From Myxococcota bacterium (GTDB lineage: Bacteria > Myxococcota > Myxococcia > Myxococcales > Myxococcaceae), in the NCBI GenBank assembly GCA_048498275.1, contig JBEHYH010000001.1, positions 4,876 through 68,875 of the forward strand: a stretch of DNA of 64,000 nucleotides, read 5' to 3'. The translations under genes and the position numbers were made by a program. Below are positions 24,267 to 42,408 of this stretch, piece after piece (the stretch's first letter is position 1; each line of letters starts with the position of its first letter). A model generated the notes under the pieces. It searched no databases, was not told the DNA's origin, and was given only the letters and a program-made list of their open reading frames with translations.

Positions 24267-24325
24267 AGCGCAACTCTACCGAGTTGAGGCTGGGCGTGGT
24301 CGTCCACTCATTTCCAGGAACATCC

Positions 24326-25468
24326 ATGCACATCAAATTCACCGCTCTGCGGAGTGATCTGTCGTCGTGTTTTCCCGAGCGCCAACACGTCATCGACGGT
24401 GCGCTCGCTGCTGTGCTTGCGAGAGAGCACGTGTTGTTGCTCGGCCCTCCAGGTACTGCAAAGTCGGCGCTGGTACGCGCCATCGCAAGTGCGTTCGGGG
24501 GCAGCTACTTCGAGCGACTGCTGACGAAGTTCTCAACGCCGGAGGAGTTGTTCGGCCCGGTGTCGCTGAAGGGGCTTGAGGCTGACAAGTTCTCGCGCAT
24601 CACGAAGGGCATGTTGCCGGAAGTGGAGTTCGCCTTCGTCGATGAGGTCTTCAAGGCCAACAGCGCGATTCTGAACTCGTTCCTCACGTTAGTGAATGAG
24701 CGTCTCTTCCACAACGACTCGACGCCGATGCAGGTGCCGCTGGTGTCGATGTTCGGCGCGTCGAATGAGCTGCCTGAAGGTCGCGAGCTGGAGGCCCTCT
24801 TCGACCGCTTCGCGCTGCGCTTCGACGTGCAGTACCTCCTGCGGCCCCAGCATCTGAAGGACGTGCTGACGTCGCCGGAACCGAAGCTGGTGTCGCGGTT
24901 GGACATGAAGACGCTCCGCACGGCGCAGGCAGAGGTCGCGAAGGTGAAGGTCACCGACGCCACCGTCGAAGCGCTCATCGCCATTCGTGACGCGGCGAAG
25001 GCCGAGGGCATCATCGTCAGCGACAGGCGTTGGAAGAAGTCGCTGCGACTCGTGCAGGCCGCCGCGTGGTTGGCGGGCGAGAAGCAGACCTCGCCTGAAG
25101 ACCTCACGCTGCTGACGGACGCGCTGTGGCGCGAGCCGAAGGAGCGCTCCAAGGTGGCGAAGCTGGTGGGTCGACTCGCGGACCCGGTGGCGACGCAGGC
25201 CACGGAGATTCTCGATGCTGCGCGAGAGACGGCCGCCAAGGTGACGTCACTCAAGACGGGCGACCGGAAGACGTACCTCGCGCAGGCCGCACAGTCGCTC
25301 GAGGAGTTCCGCGCCCAGCAGGCGAAGCTGACGAAGCTGGAGAAGAACGCCGGCCAACGGGCGAAGGCCGTCATCGCTGATGCCGTCGCAGAGGTGACGT
25401 CGCTGCACGCCGAGTTGGCCCGTACGGTCAGCAACGGCCTTGGCCTGGGCATGAGGGCCGTGAAGTGA
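24326..25468 (+). CDS. AAA+ ATPase, MoxR/CobS-like
   Basis: ATG 24326 after AGGAAC. Walker A LLLGPPGTAKS, Walker B FAFVDEVFKAN, sensor ..FGASNELPE. Helical C-terminal region. Confidence 0.8.
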   Translation: MHIKFTALRSDLSSCFPERQHVIDGALAAVLAREHVLLLGPPGTAKSALVRAIASAFGGSYFERLLTKFSTPEELFGPVSLKGLEADKFSRITKGMLPEVEFAFVDEVFKANSAILNSFLTLVNERLFHNDSTPMQVPLVSMFGASNELPEGRELEALFDRFALRFDVQYLLRPQHLKDVLTSPEPKLVSRLDMKTLRTAQAEVAKVKVTDATVEALIAIRDAAKAEGIIVSDRRWKKSLRLVQAAAWLAGEKQTSPEDLTLLTDALWREPKERSKVAKLVGRLADPVATQATEILDAARETAAKVTSLKTGDRKTYLAQAAQSLEEFRAQQAKLTKLEKNAGQRAKAVIADAVAEVTSLHAELARTVSNGLGLGMRAVK

Positions 25469-26724
25469 AGCGGTTCCTCTTCGACGTGCCGCGGTGGCAC
25501 GTCTTCCTTCACCGCGAGGCCCGCGGACTCCCACCCGTCGAAGACAACGACTCACCGCACCTCAAGCTGGAGGACGAGCTGTTCGACCGCCTCTACGCGG
25601 GCGGCAGCGAACGAATCGATGTCGCCGATGCCACCGACTGGAAAGCGTGGGCCGAGAAGCTGCACTCGATGTGCACCGAGCTCCCGACCTTCTCGCGGCT
25701 GGCCCAGGAGTGCCTCGGTGATGCCGATGCTTCGGCACTCGCCGTCGAGAAGCTGTTGGAGACGTTGAAACCGCACATGCAGCAGAAAGCCCAGGACGTG
25801 CAGCCGCCGACACTGCGACGGGCCGTCACCAGCGCGTGCGACAAAGCGTCGGTCGCCATCGAAGTGCACCGTGAAGCCAGTGAAGGTCTCGCCGGCGTCG
25901 GCTTCGGAAGCAGCACGCACCTCGGCGACAAGAAGTCTGGCAGCCCTGCCCAGCGTCTCTCGTCACGCCTGAAGAACGATGACCGGCTCCGTCGCATCGC
26001 GCTGCTGGCGGGCAAGCTGAAGCGCATCGCGCTTACGAAGCAGAAGGCGAAGGTGCGGCACGGTGCTGACGAAGTCACCGACGTCGAACTCGGCTCCAGC
26101 GTCTCCCGATTGTTGCCGTCGGAGCTGATGAAGCTGGCGCACCCGAAGCTGCGGCTCCCGCTGCTGGCGTCACTCACTGAAGGCAAGGCCATGCAGTACC
26201 GCCTCGAAGGCAACGCGTCGCTGGGCCGTGGCCCGCTGGTGGTGTGTCTCGACAAGTCCGGCAGCATGGATGGCGAGCGAGACATCTGGGCCACGGCTGT
26301 GGCGCTGGCGCTTCTCGAGGTCGCGCAACGTCAACGACGCGCCTTCGCGATGTTGGCCTTCGACGGCATCGTCAAACACGAGGCTGTTGTCGACCCCGGC
26401 GGGCAGCTCCCCGAAGACGCGCTCTTCGTGGCGTGCACCGGTGGCACCAACATCACCGGCGTCATTCACCGCGCACTCGAGGTCATCGAAGAGAGCCACG
26501 GCGCGATGAAGAAGGCCGACATTGTGCTGGTGACAGACGGTGGCAGCGACACGTCAGCCGCCCCCGCCGTCAAGCATCGCGCGGCGGAGTTGGGCGTCAC
26601 CATCTTCGGGCTGGGCATCGGAGTTGAAACAGCCTTGCTGATGCACTGGTGCGACGAAGCGCACGCCGTCACCCGCCTCGACACGGCTGACGAGGCCGTG
26701 GCTGAGAGCGTCTTTACCCTCTGA
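25465..26724 (+). CDS. von Willebrand factor A (vWA) domain protein, CobT/ViaA-like
   Basis: GTGA overlap with the AAA+ gene. C-terminal vWA with MIDAS motif VCLDKSGSM, ..GGTNI.. and ..IVLVTDG. Confidence 0.8.
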   Translation: MKRFLFDVPRWHVFLHREARGLPPVEDNDSPHLKLEDELFDRLYAGGSERIDVADATDWKAWAEKLHSMCTELPTFSRLAQECLGDADASALAVEKLLETLKPHMQQKAQDVQPPTLRRAVTSACDKASVAIEVHREASEGLAGVGFGSSTHLGDKKSGSPAQRLSSRLKNDDRLRRIALLAGKLKRIALTKQKAKVRHGADEVTDVELGSSVSRLLPSELMKLAHPKLRLPLLASLTEGKAMQYRLEGNASLGRGPLVVCLDKSGSMDGERDIWATAVALALLEVAQRQRRAFAMLAFDGIVKHEAVVDPGGQLPEDALFVACTGGTNITGVIHRALEVIEESHGAMKKADIVLVTDGGSDTSAAPAVKHRAAELGVTIFGLGIGVETALLMHWCDEAHAVTRLDTADEAVAESVFTL

Positions 26725-26907
26725 CTCGAAGGCCACCATGAATTGGAAGCAAGTCGCCTCGGCCATCCTCAGCGCCGTCGCGTGGTTCCTGGAGAATTAT
26801 CCGACGCGCAGAAAGCGCTGACCCACCACAACACGCAGCACCGGCACGGCCCTCGTCACGCATCTCGCGTGGCGGGGGCTTTGTCGTTTCAACGCAAGGA
26901 GAAGTAC

Positions 26908-27711
26908 ATGGATGAAGTTTCGAAGAAGAAGCTGTACGCGCTGCTGTCGGCCCCGTTTCCGGAGTCGTGCATCCAGCGAACCGAGGGCAAGCAGACGGGC
27001 CGTGGCTACGACACCACCGGCATCGCGTACCAATTCATCGTCAACCGCCTCAACGAGGTGCTGGGAATCGGCGGCTTTCGCGTGCACCGCGAGGTGACGG
27101 TGAAGCCAATTCAGCGCGGCAACGGGAAGGCAGCGTTCGAGGCCATCTGTGACCTGACGCTGGAACTGGGCGCGTGGGTCGACGGGTGCTTCAAGACCTT
27201 CGCCGAGGCCGTGGCGGATGGTGGCCACGTCTCCAACAGCGAGAGCGACGCACGCAAGGGCGCGTACACGAATGCCTTCAAGAAGGCGGCAGCGTTCCAC
27301 GGCGTCGGCAAGCAGGCCTATGAGGGCACGCTGGACGACGACAACCTCCCCGAGGACGCGCCACACTCGGTGCCCGCGACTCGCGCCGCGTCGACTTCGA
27401 GTCAGCCGGTGATGACAGTGGTGAAGGCTCCGCTGCCGACGCCGCCTGCAGAGGCACCGCCCGCGGGCTACGTGAAGTCTCCGCCGCCGGTGCAGCAGGA
27501 GCGCAACCGACTTTCCTCGAAGCAGCTGGCGGCCATCTGGAGCATCGCGCGGAAGCAGAGCTTCGAGACGTCGACCTTCCGCAACCAGGTGAAGCAGCGC
27601 TTCGGGGCACAGCTGGAGTTCCTCACCCGTCAGCAGGCGTCGCAGCTCATCGACTCGCTCAACGCGCAGCTGAACTCCGCTGAAGCGCCGTCGCAGGAAG
27701 GTGCTGCGTGA
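26908..27711 (+). CDS. Rad52/Rad22-family single-strand annealing protein
   Basis: AAGGAGAAG RBS before ATG 26908. GYDTTGIAYQFIVNRLNEVLGIGGF...DARKGAYTNAFKKAAAFHGVGKQAY matches the Rad52-type SSAP core. Low-complexity Pro-rich middle region. Confidence 0.75.
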   Translation: MDEVSKKKLYALLSAPFPESCIQRTEGKQTGRGYDTTGIAYQFIVNRLNEVLGIGGFRVHREVTVKPIQRGNGKAAFEAICDLTLELGAWVDGCFKTFAEAVADGGHVSNSESDARKGAYTNAFKKAAAFHGVGKQAYEGTLDDDNLPEDAPHSVPATRAASTSSQPVMTVVKAPLPTPPAEAPPAGYVKSPPPVQQERNRLSSKQLAAIWSIARKQSFETSTFRNQVKQRFGAQLEFLTRQQASQLIDSLNAQLNSAEAPSQEGAA

Positions 27712-28511
27712 CGGCCCGCGAGACAGACGGGCTCTTCGTCTCCATCTCGCAGCTGAAGCTGTGGCAGCAGTGCCCGAAGAAGCACGAGTACCGCTACGTG
27801 CGCGGCGTGGAGCCGGAGTTTGTGCCGATGGCGCTGGCCTTTGGCTCAGCGTTCCACGCCGCGCTTGCGCTGCACTACGAGGCGCTGCTGCGCGGTGAAG
27901 TCGCTCCTGAATCCGAAGTGAAGGAGCGATTCATCGACACGCTCAACATCGCGAAGCGCGGGCCGGTGCCGCTGCAACACGACGAGGAAGAAGACGGCCC
28001 CTTCGAATTAGTCGAGGCGAAGGGCCTTCAGATGCTCGACGTCACCCTCGGGCACCCGTCAGCGCGGCCGGAGAAGGTGCTGGCCGTCGAGAGGAAGTTC
28101 ATCGTGCCGCTTCACGACGTCGAGACCGGCGAAGTCCTCGACGTGCAACTGCTGGGCGTCATCGACCTCGTCGTCGAAGAAGACGGTCACCGCGTGCTGG
28201 TGGAACACAAGACGAGCGCGAAGAAGTACTCGATGGACCAGCTCAACTTCGACACGCAGCTCTCCGCATACAGCTTCGCGGCGGAGATGATGCAGTGGGG
28301 AGAAGTCGGGCTGCGCTTCTCGGTGACGACGAAGACGAAGTCACCGCAGGTGCAGCTCGAAGATGTCCGTCGTGATGAAGGCGACATGACGGACTTTCTT
28401 CGCGTGGCAGCGGGCGTGTTGAAGGCCGTCGATGCGGGCATCAGCTTCCCGGTGCGCGGCTGGAGCTGCCGCACGTGCCCGTACCGCAAGCGCTGCGAGG
28501 CCGAGCGATGA
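27708..28511 (+). CDS. PD-(D/E)XK exonuclease, Cas4/RecB-like with Cys cluster
   Basis: 4-nt overlap with the SSAP gene. GVIDLVVEE...VEHKTS (D-E-K core), QL.AY motif, and four Cys (WQQC...CRTCPYRKRC) as in Cas4/AddB Fe-S nucleases. Confidence 0.8.
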   Translation: MTARETDGLFVSISQLKLWQQCPKKHEYRYVRGVEPEFVPMALAFGSAFHAALALHYEALLRGEVAPESEVKERFIDTLNIAKRGPVPLQHDEEEDGPFELVEAKGLQMLDVTLGHPSARPEKVLAVERKFIVPLHDVETGEVLDVQLLGVIDLVVEEDGHRVLVEHKTSAKKYSMDQLNFDTQLSAYSFAAEMMQWGEVGLRFSVTTKTKSPQVQLEDVRRDEGDMTDFLRVAAGVLKAVDAGISFPVRGWSCRTCPYRKRCEAER

Positions 28512-30179: not shown

Positions 30180-30944
30180 ATGAAGCTCGTTTTCGTGAGC
30201 GCACTCGTCGTCGCGCTGGCGGGTTGTTCATCCGCTTCACAAGGAGAACCCGGGCCGCAAGGACCGAAGGGCGATGTCGGTCCAGTCGGCCCGCAAGGCG
30301 CGAAGGGAGACAAAGGCGACACCGGTGAACGCGGTGCTCAAGGCGTCGCAGGTCAGCAGGGGCCGGCTGGTATTCAAGGACCGCAAGGGCTCACCGGCGC
30401 GATCGGTCCTGCTGGAGCCACCGGCACTCAGGGTCCAGTTGGAGCCCAAGGAGCGCAAGGTATTCAAGGCGTCGCTGGACCAGCTGGCGCAGCCGGCGCG
30501 ACAGGTCCTCAAGGGCCTGCCGGTCTGAATGCACAGCGTGCGTTCAACTCCAGTGGCGCTGCCGTTGGGTCGGTGTTGTTCGACCACAACGAAAACATGA
30601 AGGTCTGGGTTGATGCATGGGGCTGCTTCAGTGATGTAAGCGACAGCGGCATCCTGTTCGCGACCAACGATGTATTGGTCTACTACGCGGATTCTGCGTG
30701 CTCAGGTCCTGCCTACTACCGGGGCATCACCATGAGCTTCAACTCGTATCGCTGCCTCGCCGGGAAGTTCAACAAGACCTACCGAGTTACTCGGTTTGCG
30801 TCTGCCGCTTCCGGAGTTTCCACGCAGTACGCATGGAATGGCAGCAACTGCACGATGGTCGCGCAAGGAAACACGAACTATCCGATGGAAGAAGTGTTGA
30901 ACTACAACGCAACTACTTCGGAGACTCGGATCGGCGAACAGTAG
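30180..30944 (+). CDS. Collagen-triple-helix-repeat lipoprotein with Cys-containing globular C-terminal domain
   Basis: MKLVFVSALVVALAGC lipobox. 31 uninterrupted G-X-Y triplets (30243-30524). C-terminal ~140 aa with 6 Cys. Confidence 0.8.
   Translation: MKLVFVSALVVALAGCSSASQGEPGPQGPKGDVGPVGPQGAKGDKGDTGERGAQGVAGQQGPAGIQGPQGLTGAIGPAGATGTQGPVGAQGAQGIQGVAGPAGAAGATGPQGPAGLNAQRAFNSSGAAVGSVLFDHNENMKVWVDAWGCFSDVSDSGILFATNDVLVYYADSACSGPAYYRGITMSFNSYRCLAGKFNKTYRVTRFASAASGVSTQYAWNGSNCTMVAQGNTNYPMEEVLNYNATTSETRIGEQ
30243..30524 (+). repeat. Collagen-like (G-X-Y)31 coding repeat
   Basis: GEP GPQ GPK GDV ... GPQ GPA G, read directly from the translation. Confidence 0.9.
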
Positions 30945-31043
30945 CGGCAAACGAGGCGGCAAAGACGTTCCGTGTCCTCCTCGGGCGAAGTCAACAAGAG
31001 AGAAGCTCATTCGGTTTACCCTCCCAGATTCGGCGCTCACGCT

Positions 31044-31628
31044 ATGAATGCCGACGTGCGACCGCTTTCTCGCTCGGAGAACATGGCCCGCATCAAGGGC
31101 ACCGACACGTTACCAGAGGTGACGTTGCGCAAGCTCCTGTGGGCGGCAGGCATTCGATACCGAACGAACTTCCGCACTCCAGGCGGAAAGGCTGACATCG
31201 CGCTGCCGTCCAAGCGCTTCGCGGTCTTCGTTGATGGGTGCTTTTGGCACGGGTGCCCAGAGCATTATGTGAAGCCGCGAAGCCGGAGTTCCTACTGGGA
31301 CGCCAAGCTCACTGAAAATGTCGAACGCGATCGACGACAGACACAAAAGCTCCTCGACGAAGACTGGAACTTCATCAGGGTCTGGGAGCACGAAGTCTCC
31401 GAAGACGCGCCTGAAGTCGCACAACGCGTTCTGAATCAGCTCAAGAGCGGAAGGCCCGCCACCTGGCCTCGGTGGCGGGTCGCTGTCGTCGAGTTCATTG
31501 ACCCCTTCGGCGAACGCGAGCGACGTCATCTCAAAAACCTTCTAGGGAACGCTGGACGGATAGAGGAGGGGCCACGCATCACTCTCAAAATCGGACGCGT
31601 CAAACGCTCGTCAACCGACACAACGTAG
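31044..31628 (+). CDS. vsr: Very-short-patch repair endonuclease
   Basis: SRSENMARIKGTDT.PE..LR..L...G.RYR, PG.ADI, FVDGCFWHGC, YW..K...N..RD and W.FIRVWEHE match E. coli Vsr. Carries a ~50-aa C-terminal extension. Confidence 0.85.
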   Translation: MNADVRPLSRSENMARIKGTDTLPEVTLRKLLWAAGIRYRTNFRTPGGKADIALPSKRFAVFVDGCFWHGCPEHYVKPRSRSSYWDAKLTENVERDRRQTQKLLDEDWNFIRVWEHEVSEDAPEVAQRVLNQLKSGRPATWPRWRVAVVEFIDPFGERERRHLKNLLGNAGRIEEGPRITLKIGRVKRSSTDTT

Positions 31629-31745
31629 ACCTGGCGGTCAAAGTGTCGCTTGGAGTATAAACCACGACCGACGATCCCACGAAGCTCACCAAACATGCCT
31701 TCTCCGTCTGAAATGCCAGCGCACACACATTCAAAAAAGGACGCG

Positions 31746-32756
31746 ATGAGTCATCGATTCGACTTCATCGACTTGTTCGCCGGCATAGGAGGATTCCATC
31801 GTGCGCTCGCGAAGGCAGGAGGCCGTTGCGTCTTCGCTTCCGAATGGGACCCATGGGCGCAACAAACCTACGAAGCCAATTTCGGTATCGTGCCAGCCGG
31901 CGACATTACAAAAGTCGAACCGGATTCGATTCCCTCACACGACATCCTCTGCGGTGGCTTTCCATGTCAGCCGTTTAGTATCGCAGGGGTTTCGAAAGCA
32001 AATGCGCTTGGGCGCAGCCATGGATTCGAGCACGCAACGCAGGGAACGCTATTCTTTAACGTGGCAAAAATTATCGCCCGCCAAAGGCCACGCGCATTCA
32101 TCTTAGAGAACGTGAAGAACCTGAAAAGTCACGACAAGGGTCGTACGTTTCAAGTCATTTCAAACACATTGACCGAGCTGGGCTACCACTTTGACCATCG
32201 CATTCTCGATGCCCGTCACTGGGTGCCACAACACAGAGAACGAGTATTTATCGTCGGCTTTCGAGATAGCGCTGACTTCGCCCGCTATAAATGGCCGACT
32301 CTACCTAAGAAACAACTGCGGTTCAGCGACATTCTCGAAGAACACGTCCCACCCAAATACACCCTTTCCGATAAGCTGTGGGACTACTTACAGAGGTACG
32401 CCGCCAAGCATAAAGCTGCTGGCAATGGTTTCGGGTACGGACTCGTCGATTTGAATGGTGTATCGCGCACTTTGAGTGCTCGATACTACAAGGATGGGTC
32501 TGAGATACTGATACCGCAACGAGGTAAAAACCCGCGCAGAATGACGCCTCGCGAATGTGCGCGATTGATGGGCTATCCAGATAAAATGAACATCGTATGC
32601 AGCGACACGCGTGCCTACAAACAGTTCGGAAACTCAGTGGTTGTCCCGGTTGTCTCGGCATTGGCCCAAAGTGTCGTTGCGGCGATGACTAGGCCTTCTC
32701 GCGGGATAAAATCACCGCATCAACACGAGCTTTTCTCGTCCTCGAGGGCTGCATAA
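31746..32756 (+). CDS. dcm: DNA (cytosine-5)-methyltransferase
   Basis: Motif I DLFAGIGGF, motif IV GGFPCQPFS, motif VI ENVKNL, motif VIII QHRERVFIVG, motif X GNSVVVPV. AAGGA RBS before ATG 31746 (alternative ATG 31695). Confidence 0.9.
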   Translation: MSHRFDFIDLFAGIGGFHRALAKAGGRCVFASEWDPWAQQTYEANFGIVPAGDITKVEPDSIPSHDILCGGFPCQPFSIAGVSKANALGRSHGFEHATQGTLFFNVAKIIARQRPRAFILENVKNLKSHDKGRTFQVISNTLTELGYHFDHRILDARHWVPQHRERVFIVGFRDSADFARYKWPTLPKKQLRFSDILEEHVPPKYTLSDKLWDYLQRYAAKHKAAGNGFGYGLVDLNGVSRTLSARYYKDGSEILIPQRGKNPRRMTPRECARLMGYPDKMNIVCSDTRAYKQFGNSVVVPVVSALAQSVVAAMTRPSRGIKSPHQHELFSSSRAA

Positions 32757-32778
32757 GCGCACAGAAGGGGCGGGGACG

Positions 32779-34671
32779 ATGCGGGGTAAGGACAGAGCGA
32801 CATGGGCACTAGATCAACGCGGGAAAGCCGTAGTTCTACGCCACGGACGCTCGACGATACGCGTTGACCCAATAAAAATCTGGGAAGCGCAATTTGAAGA
32901 TCGAACTAAAATCGATGGTCTAGTCGTCACAAGGCCATCGAGTGATTTACCGCAGCTTGACTTCTCTCGCTTTCCGCTTGACGTGTCGCTCAAGGCTCAG
33001 GGTTCCCTCAATGCTGGCTTCTCTCTAGCTTGGGCAACTCTCGACTCGGAGATTGACATCCGCGATTCTCAAATCGTCGAAAATCGGCGATGGTTTATGC
33101 TCGACCGAGAGACGCTCGATTCTACAATATCGTCCTTAGCTACGCGCTCAATCATCTGCCCAGGTCCAATAACATTGGGTCAACTCGTGTGGCTACGAGC
33201 CAACCAGAACGGAGCCACCAAGGTCATCGACGCGACTACCAATGCGGATCCGCTGCTAGCGCTGCAACAACCAAAGGCGACAAGAACGCTACACAAAACG
33301 ACGCTTTTCCCTTACCAATCCGTTGGCGTCGCTTTTCTAAACCGCGTCGCGAAGGAATCAATCGGGTGCATTCTCGCCGACGAAATGGGTTTAGGAAAAA
33401 CGATACAACTCATTGGACTATTGACCGATGAGAATAAGCGTGGGGCAACAACAAGCCTCATCGTGTGTCCCGCGACTATCTTGGAAAACTGGCGACGAGA
33501 GCTTGAAGAGTTCGCGCCGCAGCTAAAGCTATTTACTCACATCGGAACGGACCGCCCGGGAACCGCCAAGCACTTTCACGGTTTCGATATCATTCTGACG
33601 ACATTCGAAACCGCCGTTCGCGACGAGCCCATGTTGGCGAATGTGCGCTGGAATATTTTGATTGTCGATGAGGCGCAGTATCTCAAGACACCAACCGCCC
33701 AGCGCACGCTCTCAATCAAAAGACTCTCTCGCCGAGTTACTGTAGCAGCAACAGGCACTCCTGTTGAGAACAGGTTAACCGACTTATGGTCAATTGCGGA
33801 CCTAGTGCTACCGGGGCTCCTCGGTTCTCAGCGTAGCTTTGAGTCTGAATTCGACGACACCAAGCAAGACGCGGAGAGACTCGCACCCATTGTTGCTCCG
33901 CTCATGCTTCGTCGGAGAGTCGCAGAGGTTGCAACAGATCTGCCCCCTCGAATTGACATCCCGCAGCCGATCGTTATGACACAGCGGCTTGCTGTTCAAT
34001 ACGACGCGATTCGAACCGCGGTATTCGAAGAATACGGGAACCGCGCGACTCTCGTTTCCCTAGGAAAGTTGCGACAGTTCTGCGCTCACCCCAAACTCGT
34101 CGACATCGATTGGTCCGATCTCGCCGTAGGAATGCCAAAATATCAAAGATTGACTGAGATTCTCGAAGAACTCTTCTCTTCCAATGAAAAGGCGCTAATC
34201 TTCTGCTCCTTTACTGAGATGATCGATATCATGATGGGGGACCTGTCGCGTCGATTTCCGAACGCACACCGTGGATTCATCGATGGTCGGGTGGACATTT
34301 CAATGCGACAACCAATCGTCGATAACTTCACACGCCACAACGGGTTTGGCTTTCTTATCCTCAATCCCAGGGCAGCCGGCGTCGGCCTAAACATCACAAC
34401 GGCAAATCATGTAATCCACTACACACCAGAGTGGAATCCTGCCGTCGAAGATCAAGCCTCAGCGCGAGCTTACAGGCGAAAGCAAACAAAACCCGTTACC
34501 ATTCACCATCTATTTTTTGCGAGTTCCGTTGAGGAAGTGATGACAGCTCGGCTGTTGGCCAAACGACAGCTGTCGACTGGGGCCGCTGTCGGCAATCAAG
34601 GCTCCGCGGACGCCAGCGATATCGCTCGGGCACTTGCGACATCTCCTTTGGCACATGGAACATTCGAATGA
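32779..34671 (+). CDS. SNF2-family SF2 ATPase/translocase
   Basis: LADEMGLGKT (motif I), DEAQYLK (motif II), TGTPVEN (motif III). C-terminal helicase motifs ..AAGVGLN.T.ANHVIHY.PEWNPA.EDQA..RA.R. ~190-aa unknown N-terminal region. Confidence 0.85.
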   Translation: MRGKDRATWALDQRGKAVVLRHGRSTIRVDPIKIWEAQFEDRTKIDGLVVTRPSSDLPQLDFSRFPLDVSLKAQGSLNAGFSLAWATLDSEIDIRDSQIVENRRWFMLDRETLDSTISSLATRSIICPGPITLGQLVWLRANQNGATKVIDATTNADPLLALQQPKATRTLHKTTLFPYQSVGVAFLNRVAKESIGCILADEMGLGKTIQLIGLLTDENKRGATTSLIVCPATILENWRRELEEFAPQLKLFTHIGTDRPGTAKHFHGFDIILTTFETAVRDEPMLANVRWNILIVDEAQYLKTPTAQRTLSIKRLSRRVTVAATGTPVENRLTDLWSIADLVLPGLLGSQRSFESEFDDTKQDAERLAPIVAPLMLRRRVAEVATDLPPRIDIPQPIVMTQRLAVQYDAIRTAVFEEYGNRATLVSLGKLRQFCAHPKLVDIDWSDLAVGMPKYQRLTEILEELFSSNEKALIFCSFTEMIDIMMGDLSRRFPNAHRGFIDGRVDISMRQPIVDNFTRHNGFGFLILNPRAAGVGLNITTANHVIHYTPEWNPAVEDQASARAYRRKQTKPVTIHHLFFASSVEEVMTARLLAKRQLSTGAAVGNQGSADASDIARALATSPLAHGTFE

Positions 34672-35105
34672 CACTCGAATCCACGCGCATAATCAAAACC
34701 CTCAGCGCGAACGATGTCGGCGAAACAGGCTCACATCAAGCCGGCATTCTGGTACCGAAATCTCCAGAGATCCTCAGCTATTTCCCCAAGCTAGACCATC
34801 ACTTAAAGAATCCACGAAATACGCTCACTTTCTTTGAGCCGAATGCCATTACAAAATGGGATTTCGAATTCATCTACTACAACAACAAGTTTTTTGATGG
34901 AACCCGGAACGAGTATCGACTCACCGGAATGACAAAGTATCTCCGGGCAACAAACGCAAAGCGCGACGATGCTTTGGAATTCTATCGGGACGCTGATGGT
35001 CGCCGAACCATATGCCTGCGGCGTGCGGAAGCACAGACACACGACGACGACGGGACATTACGAATCAGTGGCGGTTGGAAAATCATTCGACTCTCCGGGA
35101 GATGA
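34668..35105 (+). CDS. Stand-alone B3-like DNA-binding protein (EcoRII N-terminal effector-domain-like)
   Basis: ATGA overlap on both sides. KTLSANDVGETGSHQAGILVPK resembles the EcoRII-N/B3 pseudobarrel signature. 145 aa. Confidence 0.55.
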   Translation: MTLESTRIIKTLSANDVGETGSHQAGILVPKSPEILSYFPKLDHHLKNPRNTLTFFEPNAITKWDFEFIYYNNKFFDGTRNEYRLTGMTKYLRATNAKRDDALEFYRDADGRRTICLRRAEAQTHDDDGTLRISGGWKIIRLSGR

Positions 35106-36739
35106 AATTGGCCAAAAAAGCGACCGACAAATACGTAGAATGTGCTCCTGATCCGGAACGAGTCGTCGAGGGCTTGCGGGACACAGGATATCAGCTGGAA
35201 ACGGCAGTGGCCGATATCGTCGACAACAGCATCGCTGCGACAGCAAAGCGTATCGACGTGAACATGAACATGGACCCTAAAGGGAACGTGCTTGTGTCTA
35301 TTGCCGACAATGGAATCGGCATGAGTCGAGACGGACTAATCAATGCGCTGAGATACGGATCCAAAAGACGCGCAGACCCATCCAGTCTAGGAAAATTTGG
35401 TCTCGGATTAAAAACCGCCTCGACGGCTTTCTCACGTCGAATAGTACTCATTTCGCGCGAAAAGAAATCTGGAGCGGTGCTTCGCGCGGTCTGGGACTTA
35501 GATGTCGTCGCGGATAAGCACGACTGGTTAATAGAGATAGACGACGCCAGGAAAGAAGAGATTTTAATTCTCGATCAGACTGCCGAAGGCGGCACAGGCA
35601 CGGTCGTCATATGGGATCGCGTTGATCGACTCCTCTCTGAATACAAAAACCAAAACGGCGTTCCCGCCCGAAAAGCCCTGACGCGTCACGTCGATGGACT
35701 GCGACAGCATCTGGCTATGACTTATCAGCGATTCTTGGACCCCAAAGACAAGCGAGCTCCAACAATCAAACTGCGATTGCAAGGCGAAGCAGTTGAACCA
35801 TGGGACCCGTTTTGTTTATCGGAAACGAAGGAGCCGATTGAAAACAAAACAATCCCTCTGGAGCTACCCGACGGCACAAAAACATCATTTTCGATTAGGG
35901 CTTTTGTGTTGCCTCGAAAAGAGGACTTCACCGATCAGGATGCAGCAAAGCTCGCGCGGATACAAAACGATATGCAAGGTATATATGTCTACCGTGAGAA
36001 TCGAATGATCCACGGCCCAGACTGGATGGACATGTACCGAAAAGAACCTCACGTCACATTGTGTCGCGTCGAGCTTTCATTCGACCACAAATCCGACGAA
36101 GCGTTCCAGGTCGATATCAAGAAATCGCGAATTCTACTCGCGAACGAGCTCTACGAATGGCTCCGAGACAAATTCCTCCCTGGCCCACGACGCGAGGCTG
36201 AATCTCGGTCTCGAAAAGGCCAAGCGGCCAGAGCCAGTGGGCTTGGAGCGCTGCTACACACCGCATCAAACAATGCAATTCACAGCAAAGCGGATGCTCT
36301 GCAAACTGCCAAGTTGCAAGAGTACAGCGCTAAGACTGGTGAGGCCACGATCCAGAATCGCGGCGGCAAAGCGAAAATAAAAATCAAATTGGTTGATTCC
36401 GTAACCCCCGGTCAGGTTCATGTTCAAACTGTCCCTGAAATCATAAACGGGCTACTTTTCGAGCCCGCCTACATCAAGGGGGCGAACGGCGAGAGCAATC
36501 AAGGCGTCCAAATTGCCAGCAGTCATCCTTACTACCATAAGGTTTACCTTCCCAATCGCTCGTCTGGCGTCACCATTCAGGGCTTGGATTCCTTACTTTG
36601 GGCTTTGGGTGCTGCCGAACTCGGATGTGTCAGTGACGAAACCAAACGAAAGTTTGAAGAAATGCGTTTCGAGGTCTCGAGACTACTACGACAGCTCGTC
36701 GATGACATGCCCGACCCGATCGATGACGCCGAGCAATGA
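35102..36739 (+). CDS. GHKL-superfamily ATPase (HATPase_c_3 / MORC-like)
   Basis: Bergerat-fold motifs: N-box AVADIVDNSIAA, G1 ADNGIGMS, G2 LGKFGLGLKTAS. 545 aa with a long C-terminal region. Confidence 0.8.
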   Translation: MKLAKKATDKYVECAPDPERVVEGLRDTGYQLETAVADIVDNSIAATAKRIDVNMNMDPKGNVLVSIADNGIGMSRDGLINALRYGSKRRADPSSLGKFGLGLKTASTAFSRRIVLISREKKSGAVLRAVWDLDVVADKHDWLIEIDDARKEEILILDQTAEGGTGTVVIWDRVDRLLSEYKNQNGVPARKALTRHVDGLRQHLAMTYQRFLDPKDKRAPTIKLRLQGEAVEPWDPFCLSETKEPIENKTIPLELPDGTKTSFSIRAFVLPRKEDFTDQDAAKLARIQNDMQGIYVYRENRMIHGPDWMDMYRKEPHVTLCRVELSFDHKSDEAFQVDIKKSRILLANELYEWLRDKFLPGPRREAESRSRKGQAARASGLGALLHTASNNAIHSKADALQTAKLQEYSAKTGEATIQNRGGKAKIKIKLVDSVTPGQVHVQTVPEIINGLLFEPAYIKGANGESNQGVQIASSHPYYHKVYLPNRSSGVTIQGLDSLLWALGAAELGCVSDETKRKFEEMRFEVSRLLRQLVDDMPDPIDDAEQ

Positions 36740-37650
36740 TTGACGAAAGAGCACTAGAGCAGCGCCTGTGCGGCCGTTTTGGTTTGGCGATCAGCGCCGG
36801 TCGCCGTGGCCACGGCCTAGATGAGTGTGTGTACTTTCGAGTGGTCGGTCACGGTATCGACAAACCAAATGGTTTCGCAATCGAACTGACCGGAGAATGG
36901 CGCTCACTTGAAGCCAAGTTCGTTCCGGATTCGTTTGCACGATCGCTGATGCAGACTGTCGCAGCATCTACCGAACTGCGACGTAGAGAATTTCTCTCTC
37001 TGTCAGATGCTTTTCAGAGCACGGGGATTCGCAGTTCAGTACGGATTGACGACCGTCCGATTAACGCGAGAGATACCTTGACGCAGCCTTGGTCGAAGTT
37101 CCAACTCGCTTGCCATCGACTTACCGACAAATCGGATGAACAGCGCGATGCGGAGGAACTTGGCGGAGCATGCTTGGCACTAGTTCTTTCGCTACTCCCG
37201 ATCGAGGAGTTGGTTTCACTGCCGTCGGAAGAGTTTCTCGAGCTTGAGCCGGGCACCAACCAAATAGACGGGTTGCCAGAGGGAGCGGTAACCAAAATAA
37301 CTGTTAATCGGTATGAACGCCGACCAGCCAATCGCGCGGCAGCTATCGCGGCCCACGGGACGCAGTGTGCAGCGTGCGGTTTTGACTTCTTTAGATTCTA
37401 CGGAGATCTGGGAGACGGCTTTATTGAAATACACCATCGAACGCCAGTATCGCTGATAGGGCCCAACTACATCATCGACCCAGTACGCGACTTAGTGCCG
37501 TTGTGCGCGAACTGCCACCAGATGGTGCATCGAAGATCTCCGCCGGTTGAACCAGAACAATTGAGAGAACTCTTGCTCGCGCGTCAAAAGTTCCCCAAGA
37601 CAACCGCATCTGGCAGTCCCGATGACGAGACCGCAGGGCGTCTGGAGTAG
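36736..37650 (+). CDS. HNH endonuclease with uncharacterised N-terminal domain
   Basis: ATGA overlap with the upstream stop. C-terminal ..NRYERR...R..A....G..C.ACGFDF...FIEIHHRTPVS...DLVPLCANCHQMVHR (HNH, McrA-like). Confidence 0.8.
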   Translation: MIDERALEQRLCGRFGLAISAGRRGHGLDECVYFRVVGHGIDKPNGFAIELTGEWRSLEAKFVPDSFARSLMQTVAASTELRRREFLSLSDAFQSTGIRSSVRIDDRPINARDTLTQPWSKFQLACHRLTDKSDEQRDAEELGGACLALVLSLLPIEELVSLPSEEFLELEPGTNQIDGLPEGAVTKITVNRYERRPANRAAAIAAHGTQCAACGFDFFRFYGDLGDGFIEIHHRTPVSLIGPNYIIDPVRDLVPLCANCHQMVHRRSPPVEPEQLRELLLARQKFPKTTASGSPDDETAGRLE

Positions 37651-37776
37651 TTCTCGCGTGGATTCCACTTAACAAAGTCGTCTGCCGCTCAATGGTCAGC
37701 CATCAAAAACGAAAGAGGCGTTAAGCTTGCAGCTGTCAGGAACAAGGTAGGAGCTTCCGACATGCACTGCTTCACG

Positions 37777-39582
37777 CTACCTATGCTGTTCTTGATGAAG
37801 TTCAATACCAAGGAACCGCAGTTCGCCATCGAGGTTAAACCGAGGCGTCCACACCGCATCAACAGAACCTACTGGCACCACATCGGGATCCGTTGCGCTG
37901 AACACGAACTGAACAGGATCTTCCAATCTGCTCGACATTTTGTGGAACTGCGCAACATACGCACTTAAGTCTGCTGAACTCAGTTCGTGCTGACGGGGGG
38001 CATCGAGAATGAGCAGCTTCGGGTGGTTGCCATTCATGGCAAGTGAGGCTTCGACCAACGCTGCGTGGTAAGACAGGATAAATCGCGTGCGAGTACTGCC
38101 GCTTGGAGACGACTTGGAGGTGAAGGGCTCTCCATTCACAACAAGCCGCAATTCCTCATCGAACTCGATCTCCGTCGGCAAATTTGGCGTATTGAGTACG
38201 CCGCACCATTTCACAAAGCTAGTCGCCAGATGCTGCCGAGCATCGAGTAGTCGGCTCGTTTCCCTACGAGCTCCGCGTGTTGGGCGAAGTTCATCGACCG
38301 AATCTCTCGCTCGCGCTTCTTTGGTAAGAAGCACTTCAAGTTGCTTCTGCTCACGTGCAATTCGCTCGAGGCGATCGAGACGAACGTGGATATCGGACAA
38401 TTCTCGGGTCGCAAGTTGTAGAAAACTGACGATTCCACCACCTCCGCGCTGCTCAAGCTCTTGGCTCTTCGCCTCGCTTGCTTCATGAACAAGGCGCTCT
38501 GCTGCGGCTAGTTGGTCGGTTAACACAACAAGCACTCTTTCCACCTCACCGCTACCTACTTCGAAGTCCTTAAGCTGGTCTTTTAGATAGAGAACCCGCC
38601 TGCCAAACGAGTCTTCATTCCTGAAGAACTGGCAGGATTGGTTTCCACAGAGCTTTCGGAAAATGTCAGCGGCAACTTCGTTCTGCTCTAGAGCACTGAG
38701 CTCGGTGCCCATCTCGGCGCGGTAGTCACCCAGTTGTTTTTTTCGTTTCTTGGCACTCGCCAACTTGAGAGCAAGCTCATCTCTCTGTTGCGCACTTTCA
38801 CGGACGCGAACGTCAAGCGCTGATTCTGACTGAAGCATCGTCTGAATAGTAGATTGCGCACGGGCGATCTCAGGCTCCAGCACGGCCTTACGCTCTTGCA
38901 GGCGCTCGACGGCATCGTCTCCACGATCCTCGCCCAGCTCACGCCTGAGCGCCTCAAGACCTCGGCGCTTGAATGCGATCTGCTCTTGTATGCCAGCCTG
39001 CTCCGTCTTCGCCTCTCTGTATTTACCCTTGTCTACTGGTCGGTATTTCGCAGGAAGATCCAATAACCAACGAAGAACTTCCTCGCGTTGATCTCTCACG
39101 AATTTGTGGGTTTCGAACGGCACATATTCGGAAGCCCAACCAACATCCTGATCGACCAAGAACATTGGTCCCACAACGCTCATGTACGGAGGAACTTGCT
39201 CGCCCGATACCGATGAAAGCGTTCGTAGCGCGATACCAATCTTTGGTAGCAGCCATGACGAAAAGTCACTTTCATTGGAAAATGAAACAACATGACCCTT
39301 TTGGTCGCTCACAGCAACGACGAGACCCGATTCAAACTGACGTACAATTCTGTACTCTGTTGCGTCCGCCACGATTTCAACGACGACAGCGCTGCACTTC
39401 TCGCGAACCAGCGGTGGAAGTTCGACCGGATGACCAAGACCGTAGACAAGCGCCTTCAGGAGCGGCGTCTTCCCAGCACCGTTTCGTCCAAGAAGGAGCG
39501 TGCTGGCCCTACCAAACGACAATGAGCCGCTAGTCCAACCGACTTCACCACGAGGTAGCAACTCCAGCGAACGCAGCGTCAT
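37777..39582 (-). CDS. SMC/Rad50-like ABC ATPase (ABC-3C-type ATPase component)
   Basis: N-terminal Walker A LLLGRNGAGKT, ~300-aa coiled coil, C-terminal signature-like SPSGST and Walker B KLLILDAP. 4-nt overlap with the upstream gene. Confidence 0.8.
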   Translation of the reverse strand: MTLRSLELLPRGEVGWTSGSLSFGRASTLLLGRNGAGKTPLLKALVYGLGHPVELPPLVREKCSAVVVEIVADATEYRIVRQFESGLVVAVSDQKGHVVSFSNESDFSSWLLPKIGIALRTLSSVSGEQVPPYMSVVGPMFLVDQDVGWASEYVPFETHKFVRDQREEVLRWLLDLPAKYRPVDKGKYREAKTEQAGIQEQIAFKRRGLEALRRELGEDRGDDAVERLQERKAVLEPEIARAQSTIQTMLQSESALDVRVRESAQQRDELALKLASAKKRKKQLGDYRAEMGTELSALEQNEVAADIFRKLCGNQSCQFFRNEDSFGRRVLYLKDQLKDFEVGSGEVERVLVVLTDQLAAAERLVHEASEAKSQELEQRGGGGIVSFLQLATRELSDIHVRLDRLERIAREQKQLEVLLTKEARARDSVDELRPTRGARRETSRLLDARQHLATSFVKWCGVLNTPNLPTEIEFDEELRLVVNGEPFTSKSSPSGSTRTRFILSYHAALVEASLAMNGNHPKLLILDAPRQHELSSADLSAYVAQFHKMSSRLEDPVQFVFSATDPDVVPVGSVDAVWTPRFNLDGELRFLGIELHQEQHR

Positions 39583-40058
39583 AAGAGCTCCAAGCCACCT
39601 TGGTCTACTGCGCGATAGGCTCGCTCAAGCTCACGAACAAGGACCCCAGATTCATCAGCAGAGAGAGTCAGCTTCCTCACAAGCGTTTTCCCTGAGTCAG
39701 CGATATAGATGGTTCTCGTTGGCGCTTCTTTCACGATGGCCAGACCTACGTTCTCCAGGAACACCAGTGCCTCCGCGCAACGCCTCCGCAGAGGAACAGA
39801 CCATTGAATGTCAGTGCGTACAAACCGAAGGTCCGCGAACTTTCTCATGAGAGTCCCAAGCGCCCAAGTTGCGACGTCGGAGGTCGGTACCCCGTTACGA
39901 CGAGCCTTGGCGATCACCAAGATTGTCAACGCGAGCAGGGGAGCATGGAACAGCCCTTCAACACCAGCACTTGCAGCTCGCGACAGCCCCTGCATGTTCA
40001 GCCGAAGTTGAACGTTTGCAGTTGTAGCCTCCGCAGTAATCTCTTCGAGAGTTCTCAC
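39579..40058 (-). CDS. Small helical protein, position of the ABC-3C middle component
   Basis: 159 aa with no catalytic motif. 4-nt overlaps with both neighbours, implying translational coupling. Confidence 0.6.
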   Translation of the reverse strand: MRTLEEITAEATTANVQLRLNMQGLSRAASAGVEGLFHAPLLALTILVIAKARRNGVPTSDVATWALGTLMRKFADLRFVRTDIQWSVPLRRRCAEALVFLENVGLAIVKEAPTRTIYIADSGKTLVRKLTLSADESGVLVRELERAYRAVDQGGLELL

Positions 40059-41254
40059 GATTCAGCCTCAACGGCGACAGCCAGCATTAGGCCAAAGACT
40101 AAATCCTTCGTGAGTGGCTCGCTCGACGTTAATATTGTGCTGTACTTGGTGGCGAGATTGGAAGCCTCCTGTCCGAGTCCATCGAACGATAGATGACCAT
40201 CGGAATGAACCTTCAGTGCACTTGCGCACGAATTTTTAAGCGATATCTGGTCGAGGGCGTTGACAACATGTCGTTGGCGCACCCACCACGCATCCCATGC
40301 CGTCTTGAGTTGACATAGCTCCGGTATGACCGATTCCGAAACCTTACTTCTCCTGCAGAGGCGATGGAGCCGAGAGAGCGCTACGACGCCTTCTCTTCCC
40401 GACACCTGTAACTCACGATAGCCTTCGGAAGAGAGGCTCAAGATGCGAAGCACATCTTCGAGAACAAGCCCCTTTGAACTCCTCAGTTCACTATTCGACG
40501 CCGGCAGCTCCGGAAGTTTCCGGTGCGACTTCTCGCGAACGACCGCAACAAGCTCTGCGCCAATCTTCTGCGTCTCTGACTGAGTGAGATCAACCTCCGA
40601 CATCTGATAGATACGCCCGCCAAGAAGAACGCGACAATCGTTTATGTTCGCAATTTTTCCGAACGCATCTTGCACATAGAGCCGCCTGAGAAATTCGAAT
40701 ATGTGGTCCGACTTTATCGACGGAAACGCTGCCGGTAGCACAGCGACCAGTTCATTGAACGAGTCCGCTGGAGCGCCAACAAGTGCGACAGAATCACTGA
40801 CAGATCGCACCGCATCCAGCAAATCAGTGAACTCTTTCGTCACGCCGGCATCGGTAACGAACACGAAGTGTTCACATCGCGCACCGAACTTTTGTACGTG
40901 ATCAAAAAGACGCCCAAAAATTGAGTCAGCGTCAGCTATCGGTGCCGCTACGGCACTCTTGGACTTCCCCTTTCGAGTTCTGACGCCGAAAAACTCGTTG
41001 ACCCTCCAAGGCCCTTGCGCCCCACCCCGGGTCTTAACTTGGTGAAAACGATAGGCCGATACCCCAGCGGACTCGATCACGTAGTCGTCGTGCCATTCAC
41101 AATAGACGCACGCGACCTTGGTATCATCTAGAACTTCAAGCGCCCCAGCTGCCGCCTGATGATACTGGAATTCGAACGCGTTCCCCGTACCTGCACCCAC
41201 CTGCTCACGCGGCTCAACCTCGTGAAGACCTACCCCTCCCTCTTGGTTGGTCAC
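40055..41254 (-). CDS. DUF4297/Cap4-nuclease-like PD-(D/E)XK effector with helical C-terminal domain (ABC-3C effector position)
   Basis: GTG 41254 after GGAG. GNAFEFQYHQ...VYCEWHDDYVIE...YRFHQVKT matches my recollection of the DUF4297 dsDNA-nuclease signature. Confidence 0.65.
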   Translation of the reverse strand: MTNQEGGVGLHEVEPREQVGAGTGNAFEFQYHQAAAGALEVLDDTKVACVYCEWHDDYVIESAGVSAYRFHQVKTRGGAQGPWRVNEFFGVRTRKGKSKSAVAAPIADADSIFGRLFDHVQKFGARCEHFVFVTDAGVTKEFTDLLDAVRSVSDSVALVGAPADSFNELVAVLPAAFPSIKSDHIFEFLRRLYVQDAFGKIANINDCRVLLGGRIYQMSEVDLTQSETQKIGAELVAVVREKSHRKLPELPASNSELRSSKGLVLEDVLRILSLSSEGYRELQVSGREGVVALSRLHRLCRRSKVSESVIPELCQLKTAWDAWWVRQRHVVNALDQISLKNSCASALKVHSDGHLSFDGLGQEASNLATKYSTILTSSEPLTKDLVFGLMLAVAVEAES

Positions 41255-41352
41255 GCGACCCGCTCCATGTCGACGGTCTTTCTCAACTGAGTGCTCGTTG
41301 AGGCTACTTTCTATACAAGTTCACTGAAAGTACCGCGCTGTATCCGCTTCGC

Positions 41353-41805
41353 CTAGAGGGGAGCAACTTCACGATCGTGAAGCCGCAGCGGCGGCAATGA
41401 CGCCTCCAGTCGTTTGAATGCCGACTGCTTCAGCTTCTGGGTGTTCATCCGAGAAATCGCCAGCAGCCTCCGCAGTGACAGCGCCCGGAGCCGCCCTGCG
41501 TCGGTCTCGCGCTCAACGACGAGCAATGCTCTCACAGGGAGCCGACGCACGACGGTGACGTAGTGACAAACCTCAATACGGCTGACGCCGAACTGCTTAC
41601 CCACCGTGGCGTACGACGCACCCGGCACATTCAGCGCCTTTTCATATCGTCTCGCTCGCTCAATCGGGTTCGGCGGCGGCGTCAGCGATCGACGATGACG
41701 CTCGCTCTCGTGTTCCAATCCGAGAAGCAACCAACTCCACTGCATCATCGCTTGGAAGGTCATCCGTCGCGCAACGGTTCGTGGAGCGTCTATATTGGGG
41801 AGCAA
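41353..41805 (-). CDS. HTH protein (ParB/KorB-type HTH-like), unknown function
   Basis: ..IERARRYEKAL...GASYATVGKQFGVSRIEVCHYVTVVRRLP resembles the ParB-family HTH segment. Start uncertain. Confidence 0.45.
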   Translation of the reverse strand: MLPNIDAPRTVARRMTFQAMMQWSWLLLGLEHESERHRRSLTPPPNPIERARRYEKALNVPGASYATVGKQFGVSRIEVCHYVTVVRRLPVRALLVVERETDAGRLRALSLRRLLAISRMNTQKLKQSAFKRLEASLPPLRLHDREVAPL

Positions 41806-41856: not shown

Positions 41857-42408
41857 TCAGCACGCTCCACCATGCGGCGATTCACGCGACGACGCACGCC
41901 CGCGCCAGTACTTGATGGCCCGCGACAGAGGCCGGTCAGTCGGTACGGCTGCAATTGCATCCTCTGGCCAGTCTGGTCCAGCCCAGGCGGCTTTCTCGAC
42001 CGCTTCGAGAAACATCAAGAACGCGAGAATGGCGTGAATCTGCGCGTCGGTGAAGTCGCGCAGCCGGTCTTTGCCGCGAGCGCTCAGTTTGCCCCCGGGC
42101 GGTGATAGCTCGGCAATGACGCTATCGGGGAAGCAGTCGAGGCGCGTTTTCGCCTCCATCGACCGCAGCATCATGGCCGGAAGGTAGTAGCGAAAGCCGG
42201 CCGCCGTGAGCAGCGCTGGGCTGGGATTTCCGCTCAGGTCAGCGACGCTCACGTCAGGCCACCGCTTGCCGATGAATCGCCCGATGGTCTCTTTGCACTC
42301 GCTGCAATGGTCATTGCGCAGTTCATGGTCACTGGGAGGTTCTCCGACCGGAAACGCTCCCTCGATCGCCTCAACCGCCGCGCGTCTCAATGTTTCTAGC
42401 CTGCTCAT
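41857..42408 (-). CDS. Hypothetical protein (183 aa)
   Basis: Clean ORF with an ATG start. HCSEC motif. No recognised domain. Confidence 0.5.
   Translation of the reverse strand: MSRLETLRRAAVEAIEGAFPVGEPPSDHELRNDHCSECKETIGRFIGKRWPDVSVADLSGNPSPALLTAAGFRYYLPAMMLRSMEAKTRLDCFPDSVIAELSPPGGKLSARGKDRLRDFTDAQIHAILAFLMFLEAVEKAAWAGPDWPEDAIAAVPTDRPLSRAIKYWRGRASSRESPHGGAC

Follow-up and report, generated by a model that had tools for sequence, protein, structure and literature searches.

A Divergent, Probable Type II (Short) Lamassu Operon with a Cap4-Type Nuclease in a Low-G+C Island of a Myxococcota Bacterium

Introduction

Lamassu defense systems are present in ~15% of prokaryotic genomes, and the trigger and mechanism of the family were worked out between 2022 and 2025. 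The type II form, whose anti-phage activity was shown in 2021 (PMC8565338), has been described as ABC-three-component (ABC-3C), type II Lamassu, LmuACB, and DdmABC, all of which are names for one system. LmuC was defined from the type II system of Janthinobacterium agaricidamnosum DSM 9628, which protected Escherichia coli from phages (Payne et al. 2021, PADLOC; PMC8565338). Palindromic DNA triggers DdmABC (PMC11707656), and three cryo-electron microscopy (cryo-EM) studies from 2025 established the stoichiometry, DNA-end sensing, and activation of the LmuA tetramer. We describe here three genes in a 64,000-nucleotide stretch of DNA from a Myxococcota bacterium of the family Myxococcaceae (assembly GCA_048498275.1, contig JBEHYH010000001.1, positions 4,876 to 68,875; hereafter the window), which in all likelihood form a complete Lamassu system of type II ("short") and the Cap4-nuclease subtype, in the order lmuA-lmuC-lmuB.

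Cryo-EM of the Vibrio cholerae and Salmonella complexes revealed an LmuA1:LmuB2:LmuC1 assembly in which LmuC and the folded coiled coils of LmuB grip the C-terminal domain of LmuA and keep the nuclease monomeric. The LmuB head and LmuC bind the end of double-stranded DNA (dsDNA), the 5′ phosphate being accommodated in a basic pocket, and, 10 minutes after infection, LmuB was found enriched in vivo at the lambda origin of replication. Activation is modulated by the binding of ATP and its slow hydrolysis. Released LmuA assembles into a cyclic tetramer with one Cap4 active site, which cuts DNA non-specifically and leads to cell death. Protection against phages and plasmids as well as abortive infection have been shown for other Lamassu members, and the family is proposed to descend from SbcCD. 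A first-pass annotation of the window, in which the trio was assigned to the ABC-3C systems, regarded their trigger and mode of action as uncharacterized, a view that these studies have rendered outdated.

Gene Layout and Family Assignment

The operon comprises three verified minus-strand open reading frames (ORFs): lmuA (40055-41254, 399 aa, GTG start), lmuC (39579-40058, 159 aa, GTG start), and lmuB (37777-39582, 601 aa, ATG start). As the first-pass annotation had noted, adjacent genes overlap by 4 nt, which can be read directly from the sequence as GTGA at 40055-40058 for lmuA/lmuC (GAA TCG TGA / GTG AGA) and ATGA at 39579-39582 for lmuC/lmuB (CTC TTA TGA / ATG ACG). Both overlaps are typical of translational coupling.

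Comparison with the PADLOC models, a check that the first-pass annotation had suggested, retrieved all three components essentially over their full length, at scores that chance ORFs would not reach. LmuA matched PDLC00242 (8.3e-74, residues 10-398, 247 bits), LmuC matched PDLC00264 (2e-20, profile positions 3-148 of 159), and LmuB matched PDLC00262 (1.8e-118, residues 1-592, 395 bits); many other LmuA and LmuB subtype models gave weaker yet significant matches in the same search. The length of LmuB (601 aa) agrees with the short-class mean of 600, and all residue classes needed for the published Lamassu scheme are retained in the three proteins. Together with AlphaFold2 (AF2) modeling of LmuA and LmuC, Foldseek comparison of LmuA, sequence matches of LmuB to the PDB, and the synteny described below, these results identify the locus as a complete type II Lamassu system of the Cap4-nuclease subtype with a probability of roughly 0.88. 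By virtue of family membership, the locus would be expected to act against phages and plasmids.

The roles proposed in the first-pass annotation are upheld by these data, namely a Cap4/DUF4297-type nuclease followed by a middle component and a Rad50/SMC-like ABC ATPase. The ABC-3C label it used denotes the same system as type II Lamassu, LmuACB, and DdmABC; the identity thus stands, under what is now the older name. Identical proteins are already deposited in NCBI without names, and a standard PADLOC run would label the locus as Lamassu. The operon is therefore a new and divergent example of an already understood family, and its differences from the characterized systems are quantitative.

Conservation of the Trio

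Screening one genome per species for relatives of LmuB yielded 118, from which 80 loci were fetched; the LmuB alignment used throughout contains 81 sequences. In tblastn searches, 77 of the 80 loci showed lmuA upstream of lmuB and in the same orientation. Of the other three, two carry lmuB at the end of a contig and the third (L043) is a lone lmuB, such that the A-C-B order on one strand is found in 77 of the 78 loci with room upstream, consistent with the earlier expectation that the three genes form a conserved unit. Likewise, 77/80 loci contain a middle ORF on the plus strand (median length 159 aa) whose end lies ≤60 nt from the lmuB start. The hosts span at least six phyla, including Myxococcota, Acidobacteriota, Gamma- and Betaproteobacteria, Bacteroidota, and Bdellovibrionota, and ten further relatives occur on IMG/VR viral contigs. 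The nearest named relative is a Polyangiaceae metagenome-assembled genome (MAG), with 60% identity in LmuB. The LmuB proteins of Oxalobacteraceae (Massilia, Duganella, Rugamonas, Herbaspirillum) fall in the same clade at 26-31% identity.

The lone lmuB homologue of L043 (6001-7827), from an Aquabacterium MAG, is full-length and lacks both lmuA and lmuC, and the genes upstream of it are on the opposite strand. Either this sensor is an orphan or a rearrangement gave rise to it.

The LmuA Nuclease Effector

LmuA combines an N-terminal Cap4-type PD-(D/E)xK dsDNA nuclease with a C-terminal helical LmuA domain. The nuclease domain (aa 20-144; 40823-41197, minus strand) was recognized by Pfam as Cap4_nuclease (PF14130, 3e-16), the single Pfam domain in the protein, and the same family was detected in 38/38 LmuA homologues. 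The catalytic core consists of E53-W-H-D56-D57 (EWHDD, 41084-41098) and Q72-V-K74 (QVK, 41033-41041). Across 74 LmuA sequences, Q30, D57, F70, Q72, and K74 are invariant, whereas positions 53 and 56 are each occupied by either E or D. The stretch cEWHDDyViE...FhQvK aligns with cEvtDD...FvQvK of HamA. On the basis of the QxK motif and the fold match, as distinct from residue superposition, K74 is the likely equivalent of K57 in V. cholerae and K68 in Salmonella, the lysines whose mutation abolishes defense.

An AF2 model of LmuA built from a 38-sequence alignment reached a mean predicted local distance difference test (pLDDT) score of 90.7. The C-terminal part (~aa 205-399; 40058-40642, minus strand) is all-helical in this model (helices H204-H397). 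Foldseek searches of the PDB matched the model to V. cholerae LmuA (9nxx, 9ny5, 9uxh, 9uxl) and Salmonella LmuA (9hr5, 9hqx) with probabilities of 0.91-1.00 and alignments of 402-440 columns that span both domains. HamA (8zue), which was the top match, Avs3 (8dgc), and Cap4 (6wam, 6vm6, 7yib) align over only 225-293 columns. The N-terminus is thus a Cap4-type nuclease, confirming the nuclease fold expected in the first-pass annotation, and the C-terminal half resembles LmuA only. At the sequence level, LmuA had no match at all in the PDB, and its family profile retrieved HamA only (E 0.012). By analogy with the solved complexes, the C-terminal domain is predicted to be sequestered by LmuB and LmuC and to tetramerize once released.

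The same data bear on whether the first gene could instead encode a CBASS (cyclic oligonucleotide-based antiphage signaling system) Cap4 or Hachiman HamA effector that happens to lie next to an unrelated ATPase. The Pfam domain carries the CBASS Cap4 name, PADLOC returned weak HamA matches (3e-6 to 9e-5), and HamA 8zue followed by Cap4 structures headed the Foldseek results. Against this, the LmuA profiles scored 247 bits compared with 19-24 bits for HamA, and the C-terminal half aligns with LmuA structures alone. The protein contains no SAVED domain, and neither a CD-NTase nor a HamB helicase is adjacent; the genes near the trio encode Vsr, Dcm, SNF2, EcoRII-N, GHKL, HNH, and DUF6714 proteins. 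Moreover, lmuA is translationally coupled to lmuC and lmuB, and the trio is syntenic in 77 loci. Given the missing SAVED/CD-NTase or HamB partners and the far stronger LmuA profile scores, a CBASS or Hachiman origin was excluded and merits next to no credence.

The LmuB Sensor

LmuB is a short Rad50/SMC-like ABC ATPase that is expected to serve as the sensor. All motifs quoted in the first-pass annotation (EWHDD, QVK, GRNGAGKT, PSGST, LLILDA) could be assigned to coordinates, those of LmuB being on the minus strand like the gene itself. The Walker A motif GRNGAGKT (39466-39489) contains K38, conserved in 80/81 aligned sequences with a gap in the remaining one. An ABC signature-like PSGST (38092-38106) follows in the C-terminal part of the protein, with G495 in 65/81, S496 in 78/81, and T497 in 71/81 sequences. 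The deviant Walker B motif LLILDA (37999-38016) retains D527 (79/81), and A528 replaces the catalytic Glu, which is absent here as in all short Lamassu. Position 528 is Thr in 65/81 sequences and Ala in 14/81, the window LmuB among them, and a conserved P-[KR]-Q-x-[ED] comes directly after the motif. Further conserved residues are Q145 (80/81) and P529, Q531, and Q558 (79-80/81).

A deviant Walker B is a known Lamassu trait; the published short-Lamassu consensus is hhhhD[Q/S/T/E], and LmuB proteins have been described as having Gln after the Walker B Asp. The LmuB subclade of the window, found in hosts of the Myxococcota and Acidobacteriota type, carries a natural Ala at this position, and the wider clade displays an invariant Cx4C apex. 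The latter is formed by CGNQSC (C312-x4-C317; 38632-38649) at the midpoint of the protein, with both cysteines present in 81/81 sequences and no CxxC at the apex. The Cx4C motif is a probable variant zinc hook. The CxxC hook is variable in Lamassu, occurring in 0, 1, or 2 copies and being absent from V. cholerae LmuB, and published surveys located CxxC hooks by regular expressions and manual validation. A CxxC-based criterion would probably count the present clade as hookless.

Li et al. leave open whether ATP binding without hydrolysis suffices for LmuA release. The D-A LmuB could be a natural hydrolysis-dead variant in which ATP binding and head engagement suffice to release LmuA, with Cx4C representing a distinct hook geometry, a speculative combination that we consider unlikely. 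If it were true and a D-A LmuB defended normally, binding and head engagement alone would be enough for release, and Cx4C would be a separate hook geometry scored as "no hook" by CxxC-based surveys.

By sequence, the nearest solved structure is Bacillus type I LmuB (9ux7), which the clade profile matched at 6.7e-10, followed by the ABC heads of Rad50 (E 7.6e-4 to 3e-6), and Pfam reported sub-threshold P-loop and SMC_N matches only. The matches to Rad50 heads, weak NCBIfam matches to RecF and SMC, and the proposed descent of Lamassu from SbcCD would fit a housekeeping repair protein of the Rad50/SbcC/RecN/RecF type, for which the Cap4-like protein would replace SbcD/Mre11 as nuclease partner. 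The scores speak otherwise, with recF at 15.2 bits against a cutoff of 172 and SMC_prok_B at 12.6 against 567 (12-15 bits versus cutoffs of 172-567 overall), compared with 395 bits for the LmuB profile. The ATPase hence does not group with the housekeeping proteins, a grouping that the first-pass annotation had named as refuting its assignment. In addition, no Mre11/SbcD phosphoesterase is present, the coiled coil is short, the Walker B is deviant, the locus resides in a low-G+C island and not in the core genome, and its distribution over at least six phyla, including viral contigs, is patchy. On the grounds of scores, operon partners, and island location, the repair explanation was excluded as extremely improbable.

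The LmuC Middle Component

For LmuC, the AF2 model (pLDDT 76, core >90) displays a winged-helix-like fold with a helix-strand-strand wing at residues 88-119. Foldseek yielded weak matches to the winged helices of MukE, ScpB, MarR, and TubR (E ≥0.05, probability up to 0.99), which agrees with the matches of published LmuC models to helix-turn-helix (HTH)-type regulators and winged helices. Searching the PDB with the LmuC sequence returned chance-level matches only (E ≥0.25).

Genomic Setting and Neighboring Genes

The G+C content of the operon is 54%, compared with ~65.5% in both flanks, and the operon marks the distal end of a low-G+C stretch at ~14-42 kb of the window, within which G+C falls from 0.65 to 0.51-0.59. 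At the other end lie a tRNA-Asn (GTT) gene (13239-13312, plus strand), the sole Rfam match, and a large serine recombinase ORF (13300-14802, minus strand) that contains Resolvase, Recombinase, and Zn_ribbon_recom domains and overlaps the tRNA gene by 13 nt. This site is probably the integration end of a ~28-kb island. When the window was searched for a direct repeat that would mark the far boundary, no match of ≥13 nt to the tRNA-Asn region was found elsewhere.

Close to the recombinase is a gene for a DUF3854 protein (15788-16909, minus strand; 7.9e-14), a domain often found in primase/toprim-like proteins of mobile elements. On the plus strand, the region 24284-28511 encodes a MoxR-type AAA+ ATPase (bpMoxR, 3e-58) and a von Willebrand factor A (vWA) protein, a pair resembling the MoxR-vWA ternary conflict systems, followed by a phage-like recombination pair consisting of a Rad52/22-family annealing protein and a PD-(D/E)XK nuclease. 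A 254-aa collagen triple-helix repeat protein (30180-30944, plus strand; PF01391, 9e-17) is encoded just upstream of a six-gene plus-strand operon (30972-37650).

This operon encodes Vsr (30972-31628), a Dcm-type C5 cytosine methylase (31650-32756; PADLOC DrmMII/MTase_II, ~1e-140), an SNF2 helicase that resembles ZorD and DpdE in their helicase portion (32779-34671), a small EcoRII-N domain protein (34668-35105), a GHKL/HATPase_c_3 ATPase similar to MzaB (35012-36739; 9e-49), and an HNH protein (36736-37650). In PADLOC, its proteins match components of several systems and no single one; the operon has the look of a restriction module that is linked to methylation and includes a MORC-like ATPase. 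It converges on the trio, its last gene ending at 37650, and the tail-to-tail spacer to the lmuB end (37651-37776) measures 126 bp, as first reported. Upstream of lmuA, a 98-bp intergenic region (41255-41352, minus strand) has GGAG 9-12 nt ahead of the GTG start and presumably holds the promoter and ribosome-binding region. Beyond it, on the same strand, are a 150-aa ORF with an HTH-looking segment and no family match (41353-41805) and a gene for a DUF6714 protein (41857-42408; 9e-15).

The proximity of the two operons, tail-to-tail within the same low-G+C island, raises the idea of one nine-gene system in which restriction breaks made by the neighbor supply the triggering DNA ends. Lamassu has been suggested to escalate responses begun by other systems such as prokaryotic Argonaute (pAgo), and such escalation would favor this arrangement. 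Yet no homologue of the GHKL ATPase, the HNH protein, the 150-aa ORF, or the DUF6714 protein was found ≤6 kb from lmuACB in any of the 80 loci, which indicates that the trio moves alone, and the operons are not co-transcribed because they are convergent. A fused system was rejected, as these neighbors of the trio are never co-conserved, and is very unlikely, although some cross-talk by way of DNA breaks is conceivable. Calling the pair a defense islet, as had been done initially, remains a reasonable description of their location, although the two operons are not co-conserved elsewhere. Since none of these four window neighbors recurs beside the trio in any locus, the three genes travel as an autonomous, horizontally acquired cassette.

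Observations Weighing Against the Assignment

Several observations count against a type II Lamassu identity or against a close equivalence with the characterized systems. The sequence distance to these systems is large, LmuA being 9-12% identical to the solved LmuA chains, and the locus and its close relatives are known from sequence alone. Global template modeling (TM) scores of the LmuA model to solved LmuA are 0.24-0.35 with high root-mean-square deviations, as expected from the different angles that the two domains of LmuA adopt between states. For the LmuC model, no PDB match is significant (best E 0.05). The LmuB clade profiles retrieved only Bacillus type I LmuB and Rad50; among their best 60 PDB matches (E ≤10), V. 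cholerae and Salmonella LmuB are absent, so that sequence profiles give no bridge from the DNA-end-binding residues of those proteins (K55, R152, K174, and H180) to the window LmuB. The Ala after the Walker B Asp is not among the residues published for short Lamassu (Q/S/T/E), and the apex has Cx4C in place of CxxC, so that ATPase behavior and dimerization may differ from those of the characterized systems.

Pfam holds models for the ABC-3C middle component (MC) and C-terminal domain (CTD), and Krishnan et al. (2020) reportedly defined ABC-3C by MC and CTD families. A comparison with these families, also proposed in the first-pass annotation, gave no match for the window clade, at E ≤1 for the window proteins, 34 LmuC, and 38 LmuA homologues and at E ≤0.1 for five distant clade members. 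In both the window proteins and these distant members, LmuC and the C-terminal domain of LmuA are without any Pfam family. Membership is consequently argued from the PADLOC models together with the fold match and synteny.

Regulatory signals also weigh on this side. A scan of the operon surroundings found no sigma-70 consensus, leaving the promoter presumptive, although such a scan is uninformative for a non-enteric host of 65% G+C, and no terminator-like hairpin was detected in the 126-bp spacer. The lack of promoter- or terminator-like signals around the trio, together with the retention of lmuB alone in L043, might suggest that the cassette has decayed or been silenced and has lost its defensive function. 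The three frames are intact and full-length relative to their homologues, however, the catalytic and nucleotide-binding residues are all retained, and translational coupling is kept, leaving only a slim chance that the type II Lamassu cassette has been inactivated.

Proposed Mechanism

Gene content and order, motifs, folds, conservation of the trio, and the island context are observed at this locus. The published mechanism is assigned to it by analogy, with somewhat less confidence than the family identity, and stoichiometry, trigger, tetramerization, and an abortive outcome would follow the solved systems. Two LmuB protomers with folded short coiled coils would join one LmuC in clamping a single LmuA by its C-terminal domain, and this LmuA would thereby stay monomeric and inactive. 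Replication of foreign DNA would yield free dsDNA ends or end-like or palindromic intermediates, and the LmuB head and the LmuC winged helix would bind the DNA end in an ATP-dependent step requiring Walker A K38. Hydrolysis would probably be very slow owing to the D-A Walker B. LmuA, once freed, would assemble through its C-terminal domain into a cyclic tetramer that joins two Cap4 domains into one active site (D56/D57, Q72, K74), and cutting of DNA without sequence specificity would abort the infection.

On this basis, the region can be labeled as a Lamassu-Cap4 cassette inside a mobile defense island. With this locus, a structurally understood defense family gains a divergent member, probably from a soil bacterium, and the gain goes little beyond annotation. 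Its LmuB/LmuC/LmuA-CTD clade has neither Pfam coverage nor a solved structure and is a reasonable target for sampling Lamassu diversity, and the natural D-A Walker B and Cx4C apex provide ready-made variants bearing on the need for ATP hydrolysis and for a canonical zinc hook.

Comparison with Known Systems

CBASS Cap4 and Hachiman HamA share the PD-(D/E)xK fold and the (D/E)xxDD...QxK motif with the window LmuA, and their activation by oligomerization is a theme common to Lamassu. The window locus differs from both in being devoid of a SAVED sensor, a cyclic-nucleotide synthase, and a HamB helicase. With Rad50-Mre11 and SbcCD, the locus has in common the ABC head, an antiparallel coiled coil, a putative cysteine hook, and predicted DNA-end recognition. 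Its coiled coil is much shorter, both an Mre11/SbcD phosphoesterase and the catalytic Glu of Walker B are missing, and it is located on a mobile island. Furthermore, the nuclease of published Lamassu systems is released, whereas that of Rad50-Mre11/SbcCD is tethered.

Within Lamassu, the type I LmuAB of Bacillus cellulasensis (9ux7/9ux8) provides the nearest solved structure for LmuB, and the logic of sequestration and tetramer formation would be common to both. The type I system functions without LmuC and has a canonical CQYC zinc hook in place of the Cx4C of the window LmuB. V. cholerae DdmABC (LmuACB) and Salmonella enterica LmuACB show the same order of effector, middle component, and SMC-like ATPase. 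As in the window, their LmuA consists of an N-terminal Cap4 domain with a QxK lysine (K57/K68; K74 here) and a helical C-terminal domain, LmuC has ~160 aa, and LmuB, at ~600 aa, combines a canonical Walker A with a Walker B that is deviant. The differences comprise the 9-12% LmuA identity and the Ala after the Walker B Asp in place of Gln or Q/S/T/E, and V. cholerae LmuB is without a hook whereas the window LmuB has a Cx4C apex.

The type II Lamassu of J. agaricidamnosum DSM 9628 likewise comprises LmuA, LmuC, and LmuB. The PADLOC LmuC model has 159 positions, equal to both the length of the window LmuC and the clade median. Because Oxalobacteraceae relatives are found among the loci and the model has this length, the Janthinobacterium system probably belongs to the same clade as the window locus.

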